Part shown: piece after piece, positions 7,897 to 53,800 of the stretch
Numbering within the stretch: the first letter of the stretch is position 1
Layout: every line of letters starts with the position of its first letter
IMG/VR virus record: IMGVR_UViG_3300035497_000412
Direction: 5' to 3' (one strand)
DNA length: 64,000 nucleotides
Source: a virus
Lineage: Duplodnaviria > Caudoviricetes
Position numbers and translations under genes: made by a program
Notes under the pieces: model-generated
The model's database searches: none
Seen by the model: only the letters and a program-made list of their open reading frames with translations
Told to the model about the DNA's origin: nothing

Positions 7897-7981
7897 GTTG
7901 TGATGCTGGAATAGGTAGACAATTTTCCCTTAGAAGGAAAAGCCGCAAGGCGTGGGGGTTCAAATCCCCCTCACAACACCA
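7897..7981 (+). tRNA. tRNA-Leu(TAG)
   Basis: Acceptor GTTGTGA/TCACAAC, loop CT-TAG-AA, long variable arm, encoded CCA. Confidence 0.9.
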
Positions 7982-8258
7982 GTAGGTTCTCTAGTCACCG
8001 GAGATAAAGACTAGAAAGAGGGTTAAAGGTCTACCTCTATAATAGGCCCATCTATTGACTGGTTCATTTGGAAGGTTCTCTATCCAGTAATAGAATGTAA
8101 GAAAACGGAACCTCTCCCTCCAGATGGCGCCAAAACTCAGGGGACATTGAGAGATTAAGATACTGGTGCTTAATCATAAAATTGCCTTTTGCCAGGGTTA
8201 AATAAAGACAACTGGCGACTCTGCCAGATGAAGGGTACACACTTCTGAAATGAGATTA
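7982..8258 (+). ncRNA. candidate structured RNA (hairpins and tandem pseudoknots) between two tRNAs
   Basis: TCTAGTC/GACTAGA hairpin; AGAGG/CCTCT with GGTCTA/TAGGCC pseudoknot; TCTATT-ACTGG/CCAGT-AATAGA stem whose loop AGGTTC pairs with downstream GAACCT. Confidence 0.45.
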
Positions 8259-8259
8259 T

Positions 8260-8336
8260 GCGGGGGTGGCGCAATCGGTAGACGCGGCTGTCTCAAAAAC
8301 AGTTTATTACGGGTTCAAATCCCGTCTCCCGCACCA
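8260..8336 (+). tRNA. tRNA-Leu(CAA) with short variable loop
   Basis: GCTGT-CTCAAAA-ACAGT anticodon arm, GGTTCAAATCC T arm, ACCA end. Confidence 0.85.
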
Positions 8337-8479
8337 AAAATTCTTTTTGATTTTTATAAAAAATATGATATAATATTTATAGAAAATTAAGAAAGGAATT
8401 GATAATATGTTTGATGATTTTGATACCCAGATTCAGAGTGATGAATTGGCTTATTACTATGAAAATTGGGAGGAGATCA

Positions 8480-8617
8480 ATGAAGAAGAATATTTTTAAG
8501 AAGTCTTCTGAAGAACTTCAAGAGTATTTGCAATTCCGTAAGAGAGGATTTAAAGTAGAGCCTAAGAAAGGTAAAGGTTCTTATAAAAGAAAAAGTAAGT
8601 ATAATAAGCTCCCTTAA
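8480..8617 (+). CDS. ArfA-like alternative ribosome-rescue peptide
   Basis: FRKRGFKVEPKKGKGSYKRK matches the ArfA KKGKGSYxR motif; GGAGGAG RBS. Confidence 0.65.
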   Translation: MKKNIFKKSSEELQEYLQFRKRGFKVEPKKGKGSYKRKSKYNKLP

Positions 8618-8619
8618 AT

Positions 8620-8694
8620 GGCGCATTAGTCAAGCGGCTAAGACGGCTGACTTTCGATCAGCAAACAGGAGTTCGATTCTCCTATGCGCTACCA
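8620..8694 (+). tRNA. tRNA-Glu(TTC)
   Basis: GCTGA-CTTTCGA-TCAGC anticodon arm, T arm, ACCA. Confidence 0.9.
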
Positions 8695-8723
8695 TGAACC
8701 TTTGTTTTGGTTTTCTTTACGTT

Positions 8724-8752
8724 AAGACCTGGGCAAGTCTTGAAACTACCCA
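8724..8752 (+). ncRNA. H-type pseudoknot motif, copy 1 of 3
   Basis: AAGAC-CTGGGCA-A-GTCTT-GAAAC-TACCCA; covarying homolog of 13156 and 13870. Confidence 0.55.
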
Positions 8753-8786
8753 TTCCTCAATTTTGAAGAAAGGTATGGTAAGATTT

Positions 8787-9014
8787 ATGAAAATTACAAA
8801 TATCAATCAGATCCATACAGTGCTTGCGACTATTGATAACTGTAAGGGTGATGTGCAGCTGAGATTTAATAATGGCGATTGGTTTAGTCTGAAGTCTCGG
8901 TTTAGTCGTTATGTTGCCATGGACGCTCTTATCAGAGATTGCAATGAAGAGCTTGAGCTTTATTGCTGCAATCAGCAGGATGAAGAATATCTTTATAAGA
9001 TTCTTCAAGGTTAA
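8787..9014 (+). CDS. small HPr-fold-like protein
   Basis: IDNCKGDVQL...FSLKS pattern resembles Clostridial HPr-like proteins. Confidence 0.45.
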   Translation: MKITNINQIHTVLATIDNCKGDVQLRFNNGDWFSLKSRFSRYVAMDALIRDCNEELELYCCNQQDEEYLYKILQG

Positions 9015-9021
9015 AAAAAAT

Positions 9022-9169
9022 GAGCTAGTGGCGCAATGGTAGCGCAACGCACTTGTCATAATAGTATAAGAAATATAGTTCTTATTTATAAGAAAAGATA
9101 TAAGTCCAAATCTTATTTATGGCACCATTAATGCGTGGGTTGCGGGTTCAAATCCCGCCTAGCTCACCA
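9022..9169 (+). tRNA. tRNA-Lys(TTT) split by a 73-nt tRNA-like insertion (exons 9022-9054 and 9128-9169)
   Basis: Acceptor GAGCTAG/CTAGCTC+ACCA; anticodon stem ACGCA/TGCGT; joining the exons gives loop CTTTTAA. Confidence 0.8.
9055..9127 (+). ncRNA. degenerate tRNA-like element nested in the tRNA-Lys anticodon
   Basis: GTCATAA/TTATGGC acceptor stem + A + CCA; T arm ATAAG-TCCAAAT-CTTAT; AT-drifted D and anticodon arms. Confidence 0.75.
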
Positions 9170-9344
9170 AATAAAGACCAGCTAATAGGGAACCTAGAAT
9201 ATTGCGTCTATGGCTGCTGGAATCCGCTACCTTTGCTATATATATAGCACAAAAGACCTTTTTCCTAAGAGGAGTCTTTTACGTTAGGCGAAACATTATG
9301 TGGAATTTTTCGTTTGTTTTTCTTTCCTCTTAGTTTATATATTT

Positions 9345-9434
9345 GCAGAAGTACTCAAGTGGTGAAGAGGTCGCTCTGCTAAAGCGATAGAACGAGTAAT
9401 CGTTGCGAGAGTTCAAATCTCTCCTTCTGCGCCA
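9345..9434 (+). tRNA. tRNA-Ser(GCT)
   Basis: TCGCT-CTGCTAA-AGCGA, long variable arm, GCCA end. Confidence 0.9.
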
Positions 9435-9437
9435 TAT

Positions 9438-9527
9438 GCTCAGTAAACCGGACAAGCGCGCCGGAGCTGTCTTGAAAACAGTTAGTAGGGTGAAACCTAT
9501 GGGGGGCGGGACCTCTGCTGAGCGCCA
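9438..9527 (+). tRNA. tRNA-Ser(TGA) with non-canonical D and T loops
   Basis: GCTGT-CTTGAAA-ACAGT, long variable arm, GCCA end; T loop lacks TTC. Confidence 0.8.
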
Positions 9528-9532
9528 TATAT

Positions 9533-9606
9533 TTCCTGGTAATTTAATGGTAAAATGGCCAACTTATAATTGGTTCACGATAGTTCAATTCTATCCCAGG
9601 AAACCA
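9533..9606 (+). tRNA. tRNA-Ile(TAT)
   Basis: TTCCTGG/CCAGGAA acceptor, GCCAA-CTTATAA-TTGGT anticodon arm, ACCA. Confidence 0.85.
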
Positions 9607-9607
9607 A

Positions 9608-9680
9608 GAATAAAGACCTTAACAGCAATACTTTATTTGAAAGTAGGAGTTTATTAAACTTTTTATATAAGGTCTTGTTC
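9608..9680 (+). ncRNA. Y-RNA-like stem, copy 1 (AGAC-N5-CAGCAA...GTCTTG)
   Basis: Terminal helix AAGACCTTA/TAAGGTCTT followed by the conserved CAGCAA. Confidence 0.6.
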
Positions 9681-9684
9681 TATA

Positions 9685-9754
9685 GAGGATGTAGTGTAAA
9701 AGTAACACGCCATGTTTGGGACATGGAGTAGCGGGGCAGTACCGACATCTTCTA
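9685..9754 (+). tRNA. tRNA-Pro(TGG), atypical T arm, no encoded CCA
   Basis: CCATG-TTTGGGA-CATGG anticodon arm; acceptor GAGGATG/CATCTTC; followed directly by a ribozyme. Confidence 0.7.
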
Positions 9755-9811
9755 GGTTCACAATGGAAAATACCTTCACGCGGTGTGAACTGTTTAATAC
9801 TAAATTTTTCC
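9755..9811 (+). ncRNA. minimal HDV-like (theta-type) self-cleaving ribozyme
   Basis: P1 GGTTCAC/GTGAACT (G.U at the cut), P2 GGAAAA/TTTTCC, P3 ACC/GGT, L3 TTCACGC, J4/2 CTAA. Confidence 0.85.
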
Positions 9812-9933
9812 AAAAGACGCAACCAGCAATTTATTTTTTTTAATGGAGTTATATGTCACAAGTTCGAGTCTTGTCAATCAGCGGGATTGTAGCTCAGAAG
9901 GTAGAGCAATAACATAAAAAATGTGTCTTGTTT
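9812..9933 (+). ncRNA. YrlA-like Y RNA with a circularly permuted tRNA module
   Basis: Closing helix AAGACGC/GTGTCTT plus CAGCAA; inside, T arm 9858-9874, loop-closed acceptor-like stem 9875-9889, D arm 9892-9907, all closed by GTTAT/ATAAC. Confidence 0.75.
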
Positions 9934-9938
9934 CATAT

Positions 9939-10013
9939 AGGGGTGTAGCATAAAGGCTAGTGCGGCAGGCTTTGACCCTGAAGATAAGTGTTCGATTCAC
10001 TTCATCCCTGCCA
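9939..10013 (+). tRNA. tRNA-Gln(TTG)
   Basis: CAGG-CTTTGAC-CCTG anticodon arm, T arm, GCCA end. Confidence 0.85.
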
Positions 10014-10044
10014 TACAAAGATAAAAATAGAAAGGAAGAGAGAT

Positions 10045-10794
10045 GTGGCCGCAATTACTTTTAATGGCGCTGTATCAACTTGGTACAGTGGTTCCGCAAG
10101 AGTGTGGAGTTGCAGTAGTAGTTCTAATATAACCTATTCAAATCTTAGTGAAGGTTATATTGGTTATTATAAACCTAGTTCTACTGGATACCCATATGTT
10201 ACTTGTATTCGATTCACAGTAAGTGACTCAGGTTCTTTGGCCTTTTCTCCATCTTCACTTACGTTATGCCGGTAGAGCGGATATCCAACTTCTGGAACTG
10301 TTCGATGGCTTGTAAGTAAGACTGGAATAAGTTCTAGTAATGTTGATAGTATCTCAAGTTTAAGCAATAAGATTATCACAGAGCAAACCGCTTCCTGGAG
10401 TAGTAGCGATTTAGAAAAGTTTACTTTAAATATTGGTACTGCGACGGGCACTTTTGCTACTGATACTACTTACTATTTATGGATATATGGTTCATCTACA
10501 TCAGATGGACGTCTTTAGATTTATAATCCGACAAGTGCCACTTATTAGACAGTAACAACTCGTCCGGCTTTTACTTGGTCCAGTCTTACTGCGACAGATG
10601 CTAACACGTTAGCTGGATATGTTAATACTTATGTCAAATCTGGAGGAGCCACCACAGTTACGCAAGGCAGTAAGATTACAGCAACTTGGTATAATAAAAT
10701 TGCAGGAACTCTTGGGGTTTCCACAGTTACTACTGGCACGAAAATCACTAAAACTTTGCTGACTGCGTTAGCAACTGCATACAATTCCTATTAA
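10045..10794 (+). CDS. Ser/Thr-rich putative virion protein (3 in-frame TAG=Gln)
   Basis: Continuous frame from GTG 10045 to TAA 10794 when TAG is read through; beta-rich composition. Confidence 0.65.
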
Positions 10795-10806
10795 GGAGGC
10801 ACGTAC

Positions 10807-12198
10807 ATGAGTTTACAAATTTGGATGCCTCTTAATGGACATTTAAAAAATTTTGGATTAAGTAATGTAACTATAACCAACCATGGAGCAACGGCTAATA
10901 GCGATGGAAAAACTGGTTCATGTTACTATTTTGATGGAACCGACGATTATATAGAGATTTCCATCCCATCAACTATCACTTCTTTAAAGAACACTTCTTT
11001 AGCTATGTGGGTTAAAGGTAATTAGGCTTTTGGAGGTTTCTCCACTGATGGTACTGGAGTAGCTATTATGACCGCTTTTAATGCCAATTGGCATTTTTAT
11101 GCTTCTACTTGGGCCTATGTATCGGGTGGCAATATCGTAGATGGCGATTGGCATCATATAGCTTGCACGGTTGATGATGATACAATTACGACTTATCGCG
11201 ATGGTGTAAAAGTCGCAACTGCTTCAATCGCTTCTACTGGAATTTTAACTGATTTAACTTCTTCTAATTTTATTGAACTTGGTGCCGATCACCCAGGCGG
11301 TGATGAGTTTGGTACTGATTATATTAATGATTTTAGAGTATATGATCATTGTTTGTCTCCAAAAGAAGTGAAAGAACTTAGTAAAGGATTAATATTGCAT
11401 TACAAACTTGCGGACGCCGGCACTACTGAATATGATTGTTCTGGCTATATGCGTAATGGAACTAAATCTAGCGCTATTACTGCGAGTACCGACTCTCCTA
11501 GATATGATGGTTGCTGTGTTTTTGATGGGTCTAGTACATATATTGCCGCAGGTGAAGATGCAAAAGTTACAGATGAGATTTCAGTTTGCTGGTGGGGTTA
11601 TATGAGTGATTGGAGCGCATATCAAACTGCTATCAGTTGCACTGAAAATGCTGGTTGGAACTTTCAGCCATACAGTAATAATACTTTACTCTGTTGGATG
11701 GCGGGAACAGGTTCTTCTTCTAATACGTATAAACAAACCACTTACTCTCTTTCTAAATTGAGTTCTGGCTGGCATCATATCGTTGGCACTTATGATGGTT
11801 TACTTTTAAAATTATATGTAGATGGTGCTTTAGTTTCCTCTCTTACCGCTTATACGACAAAAACTCCGCTTTATTATAATTCTGCTAATGGCATTTTTGT
11901 CGGCAGCGAAGCTGGAAGTAATACGACAACACCAACAGGCCCTTATTTTAGTGGAAGCCTATCTGACTTCCGTATTTACGCTACAGCACTTTCCGCAGAT
12001 GATGTGGCAGAGTTATATCATACTTCTGCCATTGCGGATAATTCAGGAAATTTTTATGGTTATGAATTATCCGAAGGTGATAACTTAAATATTAGTAAAA
12101 CTGGTGTTATAAATGGTTCCGTCTTCCAAGAAGAAGATGGAAAGACAAAAATTGGTAGCGATGGAACTATTTATGCGAACATTTTTTATGAATATTAA
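10807..12198 (+). CDS. double LamG/ConA-like domain protein (TAG=Gln at 11023)
   Basis: FDGTDDYI, WHHIA/WHHIVGTYDG and INDFRVY/LSDFRIYATALS LamG repeats; the two track ORFs are in frame. Confidence 0.8.
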
Positions 12199-12266
12199 TT
12201 TGACTTTTTAAAAATTTTTTGATATAATATATATACAGTTAAGGAAGAAATTATTCTTCCTTACAT

Positions 12267-12340
12267 GGTCGATTAGTTTAATGGTAGAACAGGATACTTG
12301 TAATATTCAGGCGCGGGTCCGATTCCTGCATTGACCTCCA
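12267..12340 (+). tRNA. tRNA-Thr(TGT)
   Basis: GGATA-CTTGTAA-TATTC anticodon arm, TCCA end. Confidence 0.85.
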
Positions 12341-12385
12341 TGTGGTTACGTAATCTAAAAAATAAGAGAAAGAAGGCTTATACTA

Positions 12386-12739
12386 ATGGGCAATTATCCC
12401 ATCGACAAGTATAAATTTGTTGAAAGGACAACTAAGGAAGGAGTCCAGTAGGTTATAGCAATCTCTACATATGCGGGCAAGACAGTGAAAGGTGTCGCTA
12501 ATTGCGATCCAAGTGATAGATATTCATTTGAAGCAGGTAAAGCTCTAGCGGCGGCCCGCTGTGACTTAAAGGTTGCTACGAAGAGGGCTGCTCACGCAGA
12601 GCAGAGACGCCAAGAGGCACTTGAAGCATTAATTGTTGCGGAGAACGATGTTTCTCGTATGACAGATTATGTAAATGACGCTATTGTTGAAGCCGCGGTT
12701 GCGGAAGAGCGATTAAAGTCATTGATTGAAAAGTATTAA
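12386..12739 (+). CDS. hypothetical protein (one TAG=Gln)
   Basis: ATG 12386 is in frame through TAG to AISTYAGKTVKGVANCDPSD. Confidence 0.65.
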
Positions 12740-12785
12740 TAATTTTATAAGGGATAAGTATTACCTTATCCCTTATAAATCTTAT

Positions 12786-13099
12786 AGTGGCATGGTGTAA
12801 TGGTAGCACAGCGGTCTCTTGAAAATTGGACACCTAGCGTCGAAAGTGCTAGTGTGAATGGAGCCTAAAACGGGGAAACCCTAAGTGAATTTTTCATATG
12901 GCAATCCCGTGCTAAACTTCTACTTGTCAGTAGAAGAAATGTGTAGAGACTATATAGTTCCAATCTAACCCAAATTTTGGTATGATTAAGAGATAGTCCA
13001 GACCACAACAATTATTTTGGCTATGGAAACATAGTGTGGTAAGAAAACCGTATCCCCCTGAAGGAGTAAGTGAAAGTTCGAATCTTTCTGCCACTGCCA
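12786..13099 (+). tRNA. amber suppressor tRNA(CTA) with group I intron (exons 12786-12819 and 13044-13099)
   Basis: AGTGGCA/TGCCACT+GCCA; stem GCGGT/ACCGT; spliced loop CT-CTA-AA; long variable arm. Confidence 0.8.
12820..13043 (+). mobile_element. group I intron in the suppressor tRNA anticodon
   Basis: Core AAAACGGGGAAA, AATCCCGTG, GTAGAGACTA and AAGAGATAGTCC; follows U, ends in G; IGS ATTGGA pairs with TCT|AA. Confidence 0.9.
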
Positions 13100-13155
13100 G
13101 AAGTCTTCACGTTGGCGATGATGTTTTGACTAATTCTGTTAAAATAGATAGTTTT

Positions 13156-13183
13156 TGTCCTGAGTATGACATTAAACTGCTCA
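13156..13183 (+). ncRNA. H-type pseudoknot motif, copy 2 of 3
   Basis: TGTC-CTGAGTA-T-GACA-TTAAAC-TGCTCA. Confidence 0.6.
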
Positions 13184-13403
13184 TATTTATAAAAAGACTT
13201 GAAAAAAAAATAAAATTTGATTTTTCTTAAAATTTATAGTATAATATATATAGAAAGTGAGAGAGAGGATAAGATTTATATGAGAACTGTAGAATCTATT
13301 CAGAATAGAATTCATCTCCTTGAGAGTCGCGATCCGGTAACTAACGCAAATATTATTCGTAAGCTAAAGCGACAACTGAGAAAGCTTTCTTAATATAATA
13401 TTT

Positions 13404-13465
13404 AAAGGCGCAACCAGCAAATTTATTGTTATTTTATTAAGGGTTATAAATAACGCGCCTTGTTT
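13404..13465 (+). ncRNA. Y-RNA-like stem, copy 3
   Basis: AAGGCGC-AAC-CAGCAA...GCGCCTTG, with compensatory changes relative to the other copies. Confidence 0.6.
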
Positions 13466-13472
13466 TTTATAT

Positions 13473-13823
13473 GCCGCCGTGGTGGAATAGGTAGACACCA
13501 CAGACTTTTTGGAATACACAAGGACAACTTCATTAAAATCTTCCAAAAAAGTGTATTCTTAATAGAGCCATAAGATAGGAAACTTCTTATGGGATGTGCG
13601 CTAATTCGGCGAAACTCTCTTTGAGACAACGCCGAGCTAAGTTCAGATTTATCTGATAAATGTGTAGAGATCATATACGCACCTCCTAAGTCAGTATAAC
13701 TGATATGGAGAAGACATGATCCAGACTACAACGGTTTTGTCCAACCGGCTATGGCGACATAGAGTAGTAGGAAAATCTGTTATTGGAAACAATGTGCCGA
13801 TTCGAATTCGGCCGGCGGCACCA
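13473..13823 (+). tRNA. tRNA-Leu(TAA) with group I intron (exons 13473-13507 and 13772-13823)
   Basis: Stem ACAGA/TCTGT; spliced loop CT-TAA-AA; long variable arm; ACCA. Confidence 0.88.
13508..13771 (+). mobile_element. group I intron after U34 of tRNA-Leu(UAA)
   Basis: AATTCGGCGAAA, AACGCCGAG, GTAGAGATCA and GACATGATCC (P7); terminal G. Confidence 0.88.
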
Positions 13824-13869
13824 GCCCCTTGGGTCGGGGTATGAAAATAATACTTCACACAGTTACCTC

Positions 13870-13896
13870 TGTCCTGAGCATGACATTAAACTGCTC
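13870..13896 (+). ncRNA. H-type pseudoknot motif, copy 3 of 3
   Basis: TGTC-CTGAGCA-T-GACA-TTAAAC-TGCTC. Confidence 0.6.
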
Positions 13897-13942
13897 TTCG
13901 GGTTTATTAAATCCTGAACAAAGGAGCGTTACCTCTGTATAT

Positions 13943-14018
13943 GCGGTAGTAGTTCAATTGGTAGAGCACTTGCCTTCCAAGCAAGTTGTTGCGAGTTCAA
14001 GTCTCGTCTATCGCTCCA
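13943..14018 (+). tRNA. tRNA-Gly(TCC)
   Basis: CTTGC-CTTCCAA-GCAAG anticodon arm, TCCA end. Confidence 0.9.
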
Positions 14019-26215: not shown

Positions 26216-26783
26216 ACGATCTGGTTTACTTCAGATTGGCATTAGCCACTTTAATCATAACAAGGACTTCATTTGGAAATCAAGAGGATTTTCAAGCGTT
26301 GAAGAGATGAATAAGGAAATTGTGTTTCGACATAATCTTTTTGTTTCTCTGTGGGATGATGTCTATGTACTTGGTGATCTTTGTCTTGGCGCGGATGACG
26401 TTTATGAAGATAATAAACGTCTTATTGAATCTTTGAATGGCAGACTTCATATTGTGCTGGGAAACCATGATAGCCAAAAGCGCATTGAAATGTATAAAAC
26501 TTGCAAGAATGTTGTTGAAATTTGCGGCTATGCTACAATGCTAAAGTATAAGAAATACATTTTTTATATTAGCCATTATCCAACTTTGACAAGTAACTTT
26601 GATAATACTAAGCCGCTAAAAGCAAAAACTATCAATCTGTGTGGACATGGTCATGTTGAAGACAAGTTTGCGGATATTGATAAAGGCTTGATTTATCATG
26701 TGGAAATGGACGCACACAGTTGCTACCCTATTGCCCTTGATGATATTATTGAACAACTTAAATATAGATATTTAGAGGTATGA
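26216..26783 (+). CDS. metallophosphoesterase; ACG start and a 7-nt out-of-frame insertion at 26243-26249
   Basis: FTSDWH|FNHN is restored by skipping 7 nt; LGDL, GNHD, SHYP and GHGH downstream. Confidence 0.7.
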
Positions 26784-48157: not shown

Positions 48158-48899
48158 AAGTTTTAAACTTTTTATAATAACTATTCTTCTTTTATGCGTT
48201 ACGATTTTGCCAGTTTCAGCTTTAAATAATGATTTGATATTTACTTATAGCTTATTGCCGCAAGTAGAAACAACTGATCGCAGTGAACTAAAGAAGCTTA
48301 TAAATGAATGTCAAGACCAAATGGACAAAGCAGAAAATTTAAAGATTGTAATTAATGAATTAAATTATTCTAATAACCATTTAATTAGTATAATAGCTGA
48401 AAAAGAATATAATAAAGCTTATGAACGTTATTGCTATTATGAAAATGAATATAACAATATTGTTCAAAGTTTATATGACGCATATCCAGCCGCAAGTCAA
48501 ATTTGGCTCTATTTAAAAGAGTATGGCTATAATGACTATGTTTGCGCTGGGATTATGGGTAATATTATGGCTGAAGTTGGCGGCCAAACGCTTAATATAC
48601 AGTACACACTTAGCACAAATAATTATTATGGAATCTGTCAATGGAGTTCAAATTATTCTTCTGTTTGGGGCACTAGTCTTCAAACTCAATTAGACTTTTT
48701 AACGTCAACAGTTGAAAAAGAACTTAATACATATGGACGTTTATATTCTTCTGGATTTGATTATGACGATTTTATCAATTTAACAGATGAAAAAGCTGCG
48801 GCTTTGGCCTTTGCTAAATGCTATGAACGATGCGGCTCTGGAAGCTATTCCATAAGACAGCAAAACGCCACCGCAGCTTACAATTATTTTGTTGATTAA
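48114..48899 (+). CDS. secreted protein with a phage-tail-lysozyme-type domain
   Basis: Signal-like N-terminus; AGIMGNIMAE, YGICQW, QLDFL, FAKCYER. Confidence 0.7.
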   Translation: MKIMRLFLRLDTIFKSFKLFIITILLLCVTILPVSALNNDLIFTYSLLPQVETTDRSELKKLINECQDQMDKAENLKIVINELNYSNNHLISIIAEKEYNKAYERYCYYENEYNNIVQSLYDAYPAASQIWLYLKEYGYNDYVCAGIMGNIMAEVGGQTLNIQYTLSTNNYYGICQWSSNYSSVWGTSLQTQLDFLTSTVEKELNTYGRLYSSGFDYDDFINLTDEKAAALAFAKCYERCGSGSYSIRQQNATAAYNYFVD

Positions 48900-49310
48900 G
48901 CTCCGGGCGGGGACAGACGTTTTGCTCGACTTTCTAATTTAAAAAGCGTTTTAGAATTTTTCATATTGACTTTTCCATAAAAATTTGTTATAATATATAT
49001 AGAAAATAGAAAGGAATCAATATGATGAAGAAGACTCTAGAAAATCTGAATCCAGATCCTTTTTTAACCCAACTAAAAAAGAGCGCTGATTATATTAATC
49101 AGCGTAGAATCAATGGATATATTTATGAAATTTTATGCTTGAGATATAAAATTGCTAGAGATGCTCAAGCAAGATATGAAATAGATACTTGTTATGATGG
49201 TAATATAAAGAAAGCTTTAGCGGTTGCTAAAAAAGAGGAGCTGGATTTTTGTCAGATGTTGGATAAAGTAATGGGGCCGCATTATTTTTAAGGGGAGGAG
49301 GAAGTAAAGC

Positions 49311-50497
49311 TTGGTTCTTACTAATAAGCAAGAAGCGGGATTGAAAGAGATTGTAGCCAGATACAACGCAGGAGAAAAATATACTGTTGTATCTGGCTAC
49401 GCCTGAAATCCGGCGTAGGAAAATCAACATTGGTAAAATTTGCCATTGAAGCACTTGATGCTTCTTCAAAGGCTGTGGCTTTTTGTGCCTACACCGGCAA
49501 AGCCGCAGAAGTCTTGCGAAAGAAAGGCAATAAAGGAGCAATGACACTTCATAGACTTCTTTATGATAGCTATCCTCGTAAAGGCGGAGGTTTTTATAGA
49601 AAACCGAAACCTAAATTAGAGTATAATATAGTGGTCGTTGATGAAGCATCAATGATTCCTAAAACTATGATAGATCTTTTACTCTCTCATAAAATTTATG
49701 TAATTTTTTTAGGTGATCCTTTCCAATTGGATGTTATAAATAAGGAAGAGGCCCATGATTTACTTGACCATCCCCATGTTTTTCTAGATGAAGTTATGCG
49801 TCAAGCTGCTGAATCAGAAATTATTCGCATGACCATGAAAATTCGTAATATGGAAAATATTCCATATCAAAATGGTTCAGAGGTAATGGTTATGCGCAAG
49901 TCTCAATTAGTTGATGGCTGTTACACTTGGGCAGATCAGATTCTTTGTGCTACCAACAGAAAAAGAAAAGAAATTAATGATTATGTGCGGCAGATGCTTG
50001 GTTTTAGCGGGCTACCACAAGAGGGCGACCGCATGATTTGCCTAAGAAACTACTGGGATGAATGCGCTTCTAATGGTGATGCCCTTGTTAATGGTTCTAC
50101 TGGAATTATTCATCAGCCGATGGAGGGAGAAGTGCGAGTCCCCCGCTGGTTACAAATAGAAAATAATGCTCTTCAAACTATTGACTGTTCTTTTGAAACA
50201 GAAGAGGGGTCTTACTTTGGAGGTATCCGTATGGATAGGTGCATGATTGAGACTGGTGAAAAATGCGTTGATTGGAGAACTTCTTACAGATTAGGCCAAT
50301 TGAAAAGCAGAATTGGAGATATTGTCCCAAGAGAATTTGATTTTGGTTATGCTGTTACAACATGGAAAGCGCAGGGTTCAGAATGGCCAAAAGTTCTAGT
50401 TATAGAAGAAAACTTCCCTTTTGACAAAATGGAACACGCACGATTTTTATATACTAGTTGTACAAGAGCTAGTGAAAAATTAGTACTAGTGAGGTAA
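49311..50497 (+). CDS. RecD/Dda-like SF1B helicase with an 8-nt out-of-frame insertion at 49404-49411
   Basis: LT.KQ; SGYA|GVGKST restored by skipping 8 nt; TGKAA, DEASM, GD..QL, RQ, KAQGSEW, YT..TRA. Confidence 0.8.
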
Positions 50498-50854: not shown

Positions 50855-53800
50855 ATGAAGAGTAAAACTTTCCCAGGAAGTCTTCATAATCATTAGTGGA
50901 GTATACCCAATACAGTAACACAAGACTTCGTGATTGTATTATTAAAGAAAATGATTTAATCGATTATGCGATTGAATTAGGACATGAAGTGGTAGCTATT
51001 ACCGACCATGAATGTATTAGTAATGCCATTAAAGTCCAAAAGTATTATAACAAAATTAAAAAAAACCATCCTAATTTTAAAGTAATTTTAGGTAATGAGA
51101 TTTATCTTTGTCGTAATGGTTTAACAAAAGACAATTTTATTAAAGGGCAAGACAAGTTTTGGCACTTTATTCTCTTGGCGAAAGATGCTATTGGTCATCA
51201 ACAAATTAGAGAAATTTCTACAAGAGCATGGTATCGTTCATGGATGACAGGTAAAATGCGGCGAGTGCCAACTTACTATCAAGACATTAAAGAAATTATT
51301 GGCGCCAATCCGGGCCATGTGATTGGGTCAACGGCCTGCCTGGGCAGCTTTTTATCCTCTTTAGTCCTGCAATATGAATCTTCTGACCAAAAAGAAGAAT
51401 ATTTAAATCAGATTCGTTATTGGGTTGAAGGTATGGAAAAATTCTTCGAAAAAGGGAATTTCTTCTTTGAACTTCAGCCCTCTGCTTCAAAAGAACAAAC
51501 TTATGTAAATCAGTTTTTAGTTTCTCTTTCTTCTGAAATGAATATTCCATATATTATTACAACAGACAGTCATTATCTTACTAAAAAAGATAGACCTATT
51601 CATAAAGCTTATTTAAATGCACAAGAAGGTGAGCGTGAAGTTGACAGCTTTTATGCCACCACTTATATGATGAATACAGAGGAGTTAGAGAGTTATTTAG
51701 ACTTAAATGAAGAGCAATTAGAAATAGCATATCAAAATATTAGAAAAATTAAAGATATGTGTTCTGATTACGATTTGCAAAAACCATTAAGAATCCCAGA
51801 ATTAACATGGAAAAAGCCAAAAAATTTGGTTAATCCTGAACAATATTATAGTCAGATTCCCTATCTAAAAGCTTTTATCAATTCAGACTACAATGGAGAT
51901 AAAATACTTGCACAGCATATTGTAGACAGACTTTTTTGGGATGAAACGCTTCAAAATCAAAAGACTTACGAAGCAGTAGATGAATGTCTTAAAATGACCT
52001 GGGAATCTTCTCTTGTCAATAAAACGCATTGGAGTGCTTATTATTTAAATCTACAAAAAATTATTGATACAGTGTGGGATGCAGGGAGTTTAGTTGGTCC
52101 GGGTAGAGGTTCTGGTGTTGGGTTAAAAGTTAGGCTCAACTAAAAATTCGTGAACTATATTGCTTATAGGTGTCTAGTATAAAATACTAGGCTAACGGTT
52201 CAGAAGGTAGTAATACCATTATGAGTAAGGGAACCTAAGTCTTTTTTACTAAAAAGATAAGGAAATACCGTGTCAAGTTTGTTTAATAAAGGTTCATCCT
52301 TTTTTATATATAATAGGAAGATTAGTAATAATTAACTTAATTTATATATAAAAAAAGGAGAAGATAAAGTGGGTTTTATTTATAAAGCAACAAATAATAT
52401 AAATAAAAAAGTCTATATTGGAAAGACCACAAGAACCCTTAAAGATAGAAAAAAGGAACATATTAGTCACGCCAAATCAGAAGATTATTATTTTCATAAC
52501 GCTTTAAGAAAATATGGTGCTGAGAATTTTACTTGGGAAATAATAGAAGAGGTAGAACTAGATAAAATAAACGAACGAGAATGTTATTGGATTGAATATT
52601 ATAAAAGCTATAAAGATAAAAGTAAAGGATATAATTTAACTCCTGGCGGTGAAGGATTTAAATTATCAGAAGAAACCAAAAGGAAAATATCTGCGGCTAA
52701 CGCCGGTAAAGTAAGGACTCCTGAAATGAGACAGCATTTAAGTGAAGTTAAAAAAGCGTTACATTTTAGGCATACAGAAGAAACAAAGAAAAAAATGAGT
52801 GCAGCAAGAAGAGGAAGAAAGCTTTCTCCTGAAACAATAGAAAAATTAAAACAAATAGAAAGAACTTCAGAATGGAGAGAAAAAATTAGTAAAGCACTTA
52901 AAGGAAGAACTTACTCGGAGGAGACAAAAATAAAAATGAGTGAAGCCGCAAAAGACCATTTTACTTTTTATACTTCTAACGATTTAATTTTTCATACTTG
53001 GGGAGAAATTTTCCGGTATCTTAAAGATAATAATCTAATAACTACCGATGATATTGCGGTTTGTAGAAATTGTATTAGACCAGCAATAGATAATCTAGAA
53101 CTTGTTCGTTACGGAATGAAATGGAAAACTTCAATTTTTACAGAGGAAGAAAAAATTATTGCTCCTAGAAAATGTTCTGAAAAAACCAAGAAAAAAATTG
53201 GTGCAGCAAATAGCAATAAAAACGAAATTGTTATGATGATTCGATTTGACGGAGATAAACAAGAATTTGCTTCAAGAAGAGAAGCTTATGACTATTGTAT
53301 TAAACAAAAATACATTCCTAATACACAAGTTTATTCAAAATTTTCTTCAAAAATAGGAGAAGCTTCAAAAACAGGCAATAAATTTAAGGGAATGAACTGG
53401 ATTATTAAACAAAAAGATGTAGAGACTATCGAAAAGTAAAAAAAATTTTTTACCGAGTAGAGTAGGGCGGAAGATAAGCTACCGTTCGAAGTGCGAATTG
53501 CTTATATGTTAAGTAAAGAGATAGTCCATACTATATAGAAATATATAATAAATAGTTATACTTTTATATATCCTCGATATTACACAAATAAATCCCTTGC
53601 GGGAAACTACTAAGACATATAGCTGGAGATTTCTTAATCCCAGTCGTGTATCTGTGTTGGATTAATATAAAATTTTAAAAAGAAATTTTAATAGTCCCCT
53701 TACATTGGAAGATGTAAAGGAAAAACTCTGAATATCAGGGAAAGCCCTTAGAGCTTTTATTACCAAGCGTTAATGAAAATGAAACGTGGCTGAAGTAATT

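Follow-up and report, generated by a model that had tools for sequence, protein, structure and literature searches.

A stop-led 8-nt coding gap in the Walker A motif of a phage Dda-like helicase gene, probably left by an HNH cassette and crossed by translational hopping

To our knowledge, natural translational bypassing comprises very few cases, i.e., T4 gene 60 and its homologues, the byps of yeast mitochondria and, as candidates, the gaps of phage phiHau3. The gene 60 bypass and the mobA cassette were reportedly described in Huang 1988 and Bonocora 2011; the gene 60 gap lies 46 codons into the gene. T4 gene 60 and mobA are characterized by an HNH homing-endonuclease cassette, a scattered distribution and "hit and run" loss of the nuclease (10.1101/2022.08.31.505936). 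The large terminase gene of Streptomyces phage phiHau3, an essential gene, contains two UUA-led gaps of 10 nt; mass spectrometry showed bypass of a 10-nt gap in E. coli and favored it over frameshifting, and a 5' stem-loop and a flanking Shine-Dalgarno sequence were proposed (PMC10732093). In mitochondria of Magnusiomyces capitatus, 81 bypassed inserts (byps) have been reported (PMC5009743). The same 2016 review of recoding knows of no natural in-frame stop hopping and states that shorter counterparts of bypassing had long been expected and not found (PMC5009743); for E. coli reporters, it cites low-level stop-hops and +5/+6 hops (Weiss et al. 1987 via PMC5009743). Our literature search returned the systems just named and no family of gaps in a helicase P-loop.

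The helicase gaps reported here resemble T4 gene 60 and mobA in that the family has an HNH gene directly upstream, followed by an apparent replacement 5' end and then by the gap, which is located a few dozen codons (31) into the gene and places a stop right after the proposed take-off codon. As in gene 60 and mobA, their distribution is scattered and the nuclease appears to have been lost in some carriers; moreover, a stem-loop in one allele contains the take-off codon, as in gene 60. They differ from gene 60 in gap length (5-8 nt as compared to 50), in the gene concerned (a Dda-like helicase with a P-loop as compared to a topoisomerase) and in a landing triplet that is often merely near-cognate; a search of the helicase family for a conserved stem-loop, for an internal Shine-Dalgarno sequence and for a nascent-peptide signal identified none of them. 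The likeness to the gene 60 cassette is one of arrangement rather than of demonstrated sequence homology. With phiHau3 the helicase gaps share a short gap (10 nt in phiHau3) in a phage gene and a slow-to-decode A-site codon at the gap start; in phiHau3, however, this is the rare sense codon UUA, a regulatory role was proposed and there is no homing endonuclease. The byps are likewise numerous short inserts that are tolerated by hopping and are mobile, with take-off and landing codons that often match in two of three positions, but they are mitochondrial, and their A site is occupied by an unused codon instead of a stop. Finally, the E. coli hops span a similar distance (5-6 nt), with a peptidyl-tRNA that leaves a stop-adjacent codon and re-pairs a few bases downstream; these hops were seen in synthetic or over-expressed constructs, whereas the helicase gaps appear to be conserved natural candidates.

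The interrupted helicase gene in the window

In the window (i.e., the whole stretch of 64,000 nt analyzed here), the insert TGAAATCC parts a gene for a Dda/RecD-like helicase between SGYA and GVGKST, with the reading GTT GTA TCT GGC TAC GCC / TGAAATCC / GGC GTA GGA AAA TCA ACA TTG (Table 1). Given the flanking CC, CCTGAAAT and CTGAAATC would be equally valid delimitations of this insert. The first open reading frame (49311-49406 with its stop) has a TTG start preceded by GAGGAGGAAG, encodes 31 amino acids ending in VVSGYA* and aligns to residues 1-31 of 392-aa orthologues. The frame of the second piece is open from upstream of the insert to 50497, and its earliest ATG, GTG or TTG (49430) is located 3' of GVGKST; the other two frames (0 and +1) are shut within a few codons past the insert. 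When the downstream piece was compared to Pfam, AAA_30 matched from profile position 28 only, and AAA_19 and UvrD_C_2 were also found (E-values for the helicase core and C-terminal domains of 2.9e-19, 1.1e-15 and 1.5e-13). By these predicted domains, i.e., a P-loop NTPase core (AAA_30/AAA_19) together with UvrD_C_2, the gene product is a Dda/RecD-like SF1B helicase; homologues in the nearest isolated phages are annotated as Dda-like or RecD-like helicases, and the protein P0002 is 75% identical to the downstream piece. Intact orthologues have 392-394 aa, corresponding to 31 + 361, and read ...SGYAGTGKST... unbroken; when the window gene is aligned at the DNA level to its closest intact relative, the 8 nt stand out as a clean insertion. 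The open reading frames, the Pfam matches and the unbroken orthologues thus confirm the original prediction that a stop-led 8-nt insertion interrupts the Walker A motif and that skipping it restores SGYAGVGKST. The further claim that the insert opens with an in-frame TGA and ends with TCC, a two-of-three match to the preceding GCC, was also correct, the mismatch being in the first position.

Table 1. Positions of features at and around the helicase gap in the window
Feature	Position	Strand	Detail
GGAGGAAGTA, helicase Shine-Dalgarno region and HNH 3'-end signature	49297-49306	+	motif counts in relatives
Helicase ORF1, coding part; 31 codons, TTG start, encodes MVLTNKQEAGLKEIVARYNAGEKYTVVSGYA	49311-49403	+	first strand and start of Walker A loop
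Conserved take-off context GGC TAC GCC	49395-49403	+	GCC 49401-49403 (Ala), proposed take-off codon
Hairpin with arms CTACGCC (49397-49403) and GGCGTAG (49412-49418), gap as 8-nt loop	49397-49418	+	perfect 7-bp stem
8-nt coding gap TGAAATCC	49404-49411	+	stop TGA 49404-49406, AA, proposed landing triplet TCC 49409-49411
Helicase ORF2; 361 codons and stop, resumes at GGC (GVGKSTLVKF...)	49412-50497	+	AAA_30/AAA_19 and UvrD_C_2

A blastn search of the locus against GenBank phages gave no match. One Logan contig (L001) is 100% identical to the window over 3071 nt; as it probably represents the same sample, it does not provide independent confirmation of the assembly, and the window allele is known from one sample only. 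The open reading frames that flank the helicase gene (89 and 94 aa) showed no match in Pfam or PHROG.

Recurrence and conserved features of the gap

Relatives were collected in two samples picked by protein similarity alone, without reference to a DNA pattern (74 loci from IMG/VR and 78 loci from metagenomes); a search with a single helicase protein found nothing, while a search with a protein alignment as query succeeded. Interruptions at the same codon boundary, i.e., between GYA and GxGKS, were found in 8 of the 74 IMG/VR loci and 6 of the 78 metagenome loci (14/152 overall), and the insert was stop-led every time; the remaining 138 orthologous loci are intact and lack the gap. This recurrence at a single codon boundary is more than chance. 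Two Logan contigs add the alleles GCT TAAGGCT (L003, 7 nt) and GCC TAGGTG (L004, 6 nt), and a scan with a DNA pattern added 56 IMG/VR contigs and 8 contigs from metagenome-assembled genomes (MAGs); among the genome contigs scanned, only MAG-binned phage contigs were hit and no cultured host was found. After removal of duplicates, 42 distinct contexts with 28 insert types remained, with insert lengths of 5 nt (11 contexts), 6 nt (9), 7 nt (13) and 8 nt (9); TAACT, TAAGCT, TAAGGTA and TAAAGGCA are examples. One deep, well-supported clade of nine consists of interrupted alleles only, with gaps of 5-8 nt. An assembly or sequencing artefact would be compatible with the fact that the sole second copy of the window allele probably comes from the same sample; however, as equivalent inserts occur in >60 contigs from many samples and assemblers, and as the cassette signature (see below) is also present upstream in the window, we give this explanation almost no weight.

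Skipping the insert restores GYA-GxGKS in all contexts, and all three frame offsets are represented among the inserts. A single frameshift or readthrough mechanism therefore does not fit all alleles. Frameshifting or readthrough would yield a helicase with two to three extra P-loop residues (e.g., SGYA-KS-GVGKST), which still conforms to [AG]x4GK[ST], and an extension by two residues would put Ala at the first position of Walker A for every insert length. On the other hand, events of -1, 0, +1 or +2 would be needed at one site, even between 7-nt and 8-nt alleles separated by a dS of 0.26-0.5, and the register of the first strand would shift. Moreover, the window has no slippery sequence at 49395-49411 and no Shine-Dalgarno stimulator, and neither a slippery heptamer or prfB-like site nor one fixed frame change, as expected for programmed -1 or +1 frameshifting, was found. 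Overall, such an extended P-loop appears very improbable.

Synonymous sites among the helicase genes are saturated (pS ~0.7), yet several features of the gap are conserved. The first triplet of the insert is a stop in 42/42 contexts (TAA in 27, TGA in 8 and TAG in 7), and TGG was never seen in this position in the 42 contexts although the scan pattern allowed it; a stop directly 3' of the take-off codon, as in programmed bypassing, is thus present throughout. Each of the 42 contexts has GCY as the Ala codon before the insert. As the pattern scan selected loci on GGCTAYGCY, only the 14 pattern-free loci count for the GGC and GCY codons; among these, GCY was found in 14/14 interrupted loci as compared to 31% of the 138 intact loci, and the Gly codon two positions upstream was GGC in 13/14 interrupted loci as compared to 20% of the intact ones. 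In independent sister pairs, some rows of which came from the pattern scan, the GCY and GGC traits were never reversed (sign test, median p of 0.03 and 0.016, respectively). Inserts end in GCN (16 contexts), GTN (13), ACN (12) or TCC (1), and the last triplet thus encodes Ala or is one transition away from an Ala codon in 41/42 contexts; by our own arithmetic, a random triplet would be expected to meet this rule 3 times in 16. The resemblance of the last triplet to the pre-gap codon, together with the stop in the A site, leads us to read the pattern as re-pairing of the peptidyl-tRNA. The N-terminal 31-aa peptide is equally conserved in intact and interrupted alleles, and a comparison of the two classes is thus blind to any nascent-peptide stimulator.

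A split gene, whose C-terminal part would be initiated separately (termination-reinitiation) and would yield a protein that joins the 31-aa peptide without a covalent bond, might be suggested by start codons at or in the gap of some relatives (e.g., TAG-GTG in L004), by a TTG located two codons upstream in some alleles with TGACT and by the dnaE gap of the window, where TAGTG overlaps a GTG. However, 24 of the 42 contexts, including that of the window, have no in-frame ATG, GTG or TTG ahead of the P-loop, and in the window the first such codon follows GKST. As the break also sits between the first strand and the P-loop, and as separate initiation leaves both the near-cognate last triplet and the GCY rule unexplained, we regard a split gene as decidedly improbable, although less so than an extended P-loop.

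Close pairs of interrupted genes showed dN/dS values of 0.03-0.08, indicating strong purifying selection; these pairs include L107/L112 (7 nt, TAAGGTA) against L111 (8 nt, TAAATGCA) at a dS of 0.26-0.5, as well as L091 against L092 (TAG against TAA). These ratios indicate that the interrupted helicase genes are in use.

The window allele is the least typical of the family. It represents one of the eight TGA contexts, its TCC is the sole landing triplet among 42 with a first-position transversion, and a cognate Ala codon (GCG, 49413-49415) occurs 2 nt past TCC in a frame that runs directly into TAG; this downstream GCG could trap the tRNA in the window allele. The aberrant landing triplet and the GCG followed by TAG, as well as a window-branch dN somewhat above that of two intact sisters (0.143 as compared to 0.061 and 0.094) and the recovery of the allele from one sample only, would be consistent with a helicase gene that is dead or nearly so in the window phage, i.e., with a decayed hop device of the family and a helicase that is dispensable or supplied otherwise. 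Against such decay, the 31-codon and 361-codon frames are both intact, dN/dS between the window and its nearest intact sisters (L002 and L008) is ~0.08-0.09, the P-loop is kept, as is every invariant helicase residue, and the GVGKST variant is also present in intact orthologues. We thus consider a dead gene unlikely, while ranking it above the other alternatives.

The upstream HNH gene and the proposed hop

Clustering of neighboring open reading frames identified a single family (165-186 aa, ...CANCHRELH...) whose members immediately precede the helicase start at 13 interrupted loci and at 0/100 intact loci. In the pattern-free sets, tblastn found this open reading frame adjoining upstream in 10 of the 14 interrupted loci (2 of them partial) as compared to 0 of the 138 intact loci. 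The family represents an HNH endonuclease (phrog_2255, E-values of 1e-23 to 1e-26; Pfam HNH_2 in L107), homologues of which are common in phages. Copies are located at L082:490-1047, L003:2422-2940, L107:894-1433 and elsewhere, and carry two N-terminal CxxC zinc-finger-like motifs; the HNH stop overlaps or abuts the helicase start, and the family occurs only beside gapped helicase alleles. The copy of L061 contains an in-frame TAG, which fits amber recoding.

The last HNH codons (...EEVE*) are GGAGGAAGTAGAA and double as the Shine-Dalgarno sequence of the helicase gene. In the 33 nt that precede the helicase start, GGAGGAAGTA was found in 0/52 intact alleles, in 9/14 interrupted alleles with the HNH gene and in 12/26 interrupted alleles without an HNH open reading frame (as judged in the DNA retrieved for each locus), the window being one of these 12. 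Because the motif is the 3' end of the HNH gene in cassette-bearing relatives, its presence in the window is read as a relic, i.e., the window would have lost the HNH gene while keeping its 3'-end signature; a tblastn search of window positions 48801-49420 for an HNH homologue or remnant gave nothing significant.

The history of the 5' end was compared to that of the remaining gene. The interrupted state required 7-11 changes on helicase gene trees, while 6 sufficed when the tree was built from the 5'-terminal 111 nt without the 9-nt context and the gap; this contrast represents informal evidence, although it is better than that of the divergence profiles described below. In the window, the 5' 90 nt showed a mean closeness of 0.645 to interrupted and 0.602 to intact alleles, while the remaining helicase gene showed 0.567 to interrupted and 0.614 to intact alleles. 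Local divergence profiles of sister pairs were merely suggestive of a conversion tract. Overall, a free-standing HNH gene that lies beside gapped alleles and is absent from gap-free ones is found in this family, and by predicted gene content and position it represents a putative MobA-like cassette.

In the helicase of four relatives (L006:1328-3574, also L007, L024 and L062), the P-loop is interrupted between GTGK and T by an intein of ~356 aa that contains a LAGLIDADG_3 domain. The intein begins with Ala (GK/AQP...), ends with THN/T and is located 12 nt downstream of the gap site; the N-extein is gap-free in all four. As the intein inserts only 12 nt from the gap site, the P-loop-coding DNA appears to be a hot spot for homing elements.

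We consider it probable that a mobile HNH cassette left these 8 nt behind as a coding gap and that ribosomes cross it by translational hopping, comparable to T4 mobA and the gene 60 bypass. During co-infection, the HNH nuclease would presumably cut gap-free helicase alleles near the P-loop-coding DNA, and repair would then copy the nuclease gene, a replacement helicase 5' end (~93 nt) and the gap, which presumably shields the carrier from HNH cleavage. In the window, the nuclease gene would later have been lost, leaving the gap, a cassette-type 5' segment and the GGAGGAAGTA signature. As for translation, the comparison of alleles suggests that the ribosome would translate 31 codons and then stall, with GCC paired to peptidyl-tRNA-Ala and the A site occupied by TGA; after unpairing of the tRNA, the mRNA would slide by 8 nt (5-8 nt in the family) and the tRNA would re-pair weakly at TCC (at a cognate or near-cognate triplet in the family), whereupon decoding would restart at the Gly codon GGC. 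The predicted product is a single 392-aa helicase with the Walker A motif SGYAGVGKST and the junction peptide YTVVSGYAGVGK. Window positions 7897-14018 contain eight tRNA genes (Leu x2, Glu, Ser, Ile, Gln, Thr and Gly); as neither tRNA-Ala nor tRNA-His is among them, hops would use host tRNAs.

The hairpin at the gap is a distinctive feature of the window allele. A 61-nt region around the gap folds at -16.4 kcal/mol (z = -2.96), with 3 of 200 shuffled sequences as stable, and without the gap the two arms form a perfect 14-nt palindrome. The stem, which requires the GGC GTA of the P-loop Val variant, is private to the window allele; no stem abuts the insert in any of the 41 other contexts. A conserved gap-bridging hairpin was accordingly rejected, as the best stems of the other contexts barely exceed shuffled controls and their positions vary between alleles. 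The private 7-bp hairpin could, by analogy, sequester the take-off codon after release, like the take-off stem-loop of gene 60 (PMC5462505), and would also bury the resume codon GGC. Given this atypical allele and a hairpin that would cover the resume codon, it is a real possibility that hopping is weak or has decayed in the window phage.

The position of the insert as the loop of a perfect hairpin might also favor removal at the RNA level, i.e., excision of a micro-intron from the mRNA and rejoining of the ends by the phage RNA ligase. Inserts of 5-8 nt, however, are far smaller than introns of any known class, the family has no hairpin in common, and neither a group I or group II intron core nor a bulge-helix-bulge motif or any other shared structure was found at these inserts. 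Excision would, moreover, explain neither the leading stop nor the GCY codon nor a last triplet that resembles the preceding codon, and we therefore see very little chance that the insert is removed from the mRNA.

For translational hopping, which the original prediction had put forward as an alternative to a micro-intron resealed by the phage ligase, the comparison thus yields support from the variable inserts, the conserved stop, the GCY codon, the near-cognate last triplets and the purifying selection, while the micro-intron gained none, as excision predicts neither a leading stop nor a matching last triplet. The check proposed at the time, a search of orthologs for variable short inserts at this site, revealed inserts of 5-8 nt in all three frames. 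An exon-exon hairpin that loops out the insert had also been claimed; it is real in the window (perfect over 7 bp) but specific to this allele (0/41 others). What had been missed was the origin of the gap, for which the HNH cassette upstream (10/14 interrupted and 0/138 intact loci) points to a mobile element.

Other interruptions in the window and in relatives

Two further window genes carry stop-led gaps of matching geometry, which adds to the case for hopping. In dnaE, an 11-nt stop-led insert at 50894-50904 (CAT / TAGTGGAGTAT / ACC) splits the HxH motif of the PHP domain, and the PHP profile matches dnaE only from position 10. At this site 92 relatives are intact, while L138 has a 4-nt insert one codon earlier (AAT / TAGC / CAT). 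As the GTG overlaps the TAG, reinitiation is a fair rival to hopping at dnaE. The first dnaE open reading frame ends at 52143 after ...GPGRGSGVG; between 52144 and 53439 there follows a 356-aa open reading frame (52369-53439) that resembles a GIY-YIG/NUMOD-type endonuclease. Since L003 has a GIY-YIG open reading frame at the same place, an intron in dnaE is likely.

In a metallophosphoesterase gene, a 7-nt insert at 26243-26249 (CAT / TAGCCAC / TTT) is located between His codons and splits SDWH/FNH. Relatives carry CAC / TGACCAT (L222 and L232) and CAT / TAGCTAT (L244), i.e., His-to-His or near-cognate landings. No homing-endonuclease-like open reading frame was found upstream of the phosphoesterase gap in the window; the one located there has the P-loop GIPGSGKST and no HNH motif. 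Two scans for additional gap sites in the window were too noisy to be usable and overlooked even known ones.

A wider reading, which we put forward tentatively and regard as possible but doubtful, is that stop-led micro-gaps of 4-11 nt are a general device of gut and rumen Firmicutes phages, carried by homing-endonuclease cassettes into catalytic motifs, with several replication genes affected in each genome (three in the window), and crossed by efficient short hops that tolerate near-cognate landing. In the window phage, which recodes TAG to Gln, TAG-led gaps (dnaE and phosphoesterase) would then no longer be hopped once the amber suppressor accumulates, which would result in a timed shut-off of early genes. 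Nature provides ~40 versions of the 5-8 nt helicase gap, and as these obey clear rules (an A-site stop, GCY take-off and near-cognate landing), the requirements of short-range hopping become directly testable in reporters. The helicase family would also represent a second link between a hop gap and an HNH homing endonuclease, which would support bypassing as the price of nuclease immunity. In phage genomes, such genes are misannotated as two open reading frames or as pseudogenes. In the cultured Bacillus phage vB_BpuM-BpSp (KT895374.1, 49665-51075), a Dda-like helicase match lies in two pieces over 1411 nt that are annotated as two hypothetical proteins, and this phage may carry another interrupted helicase gene.
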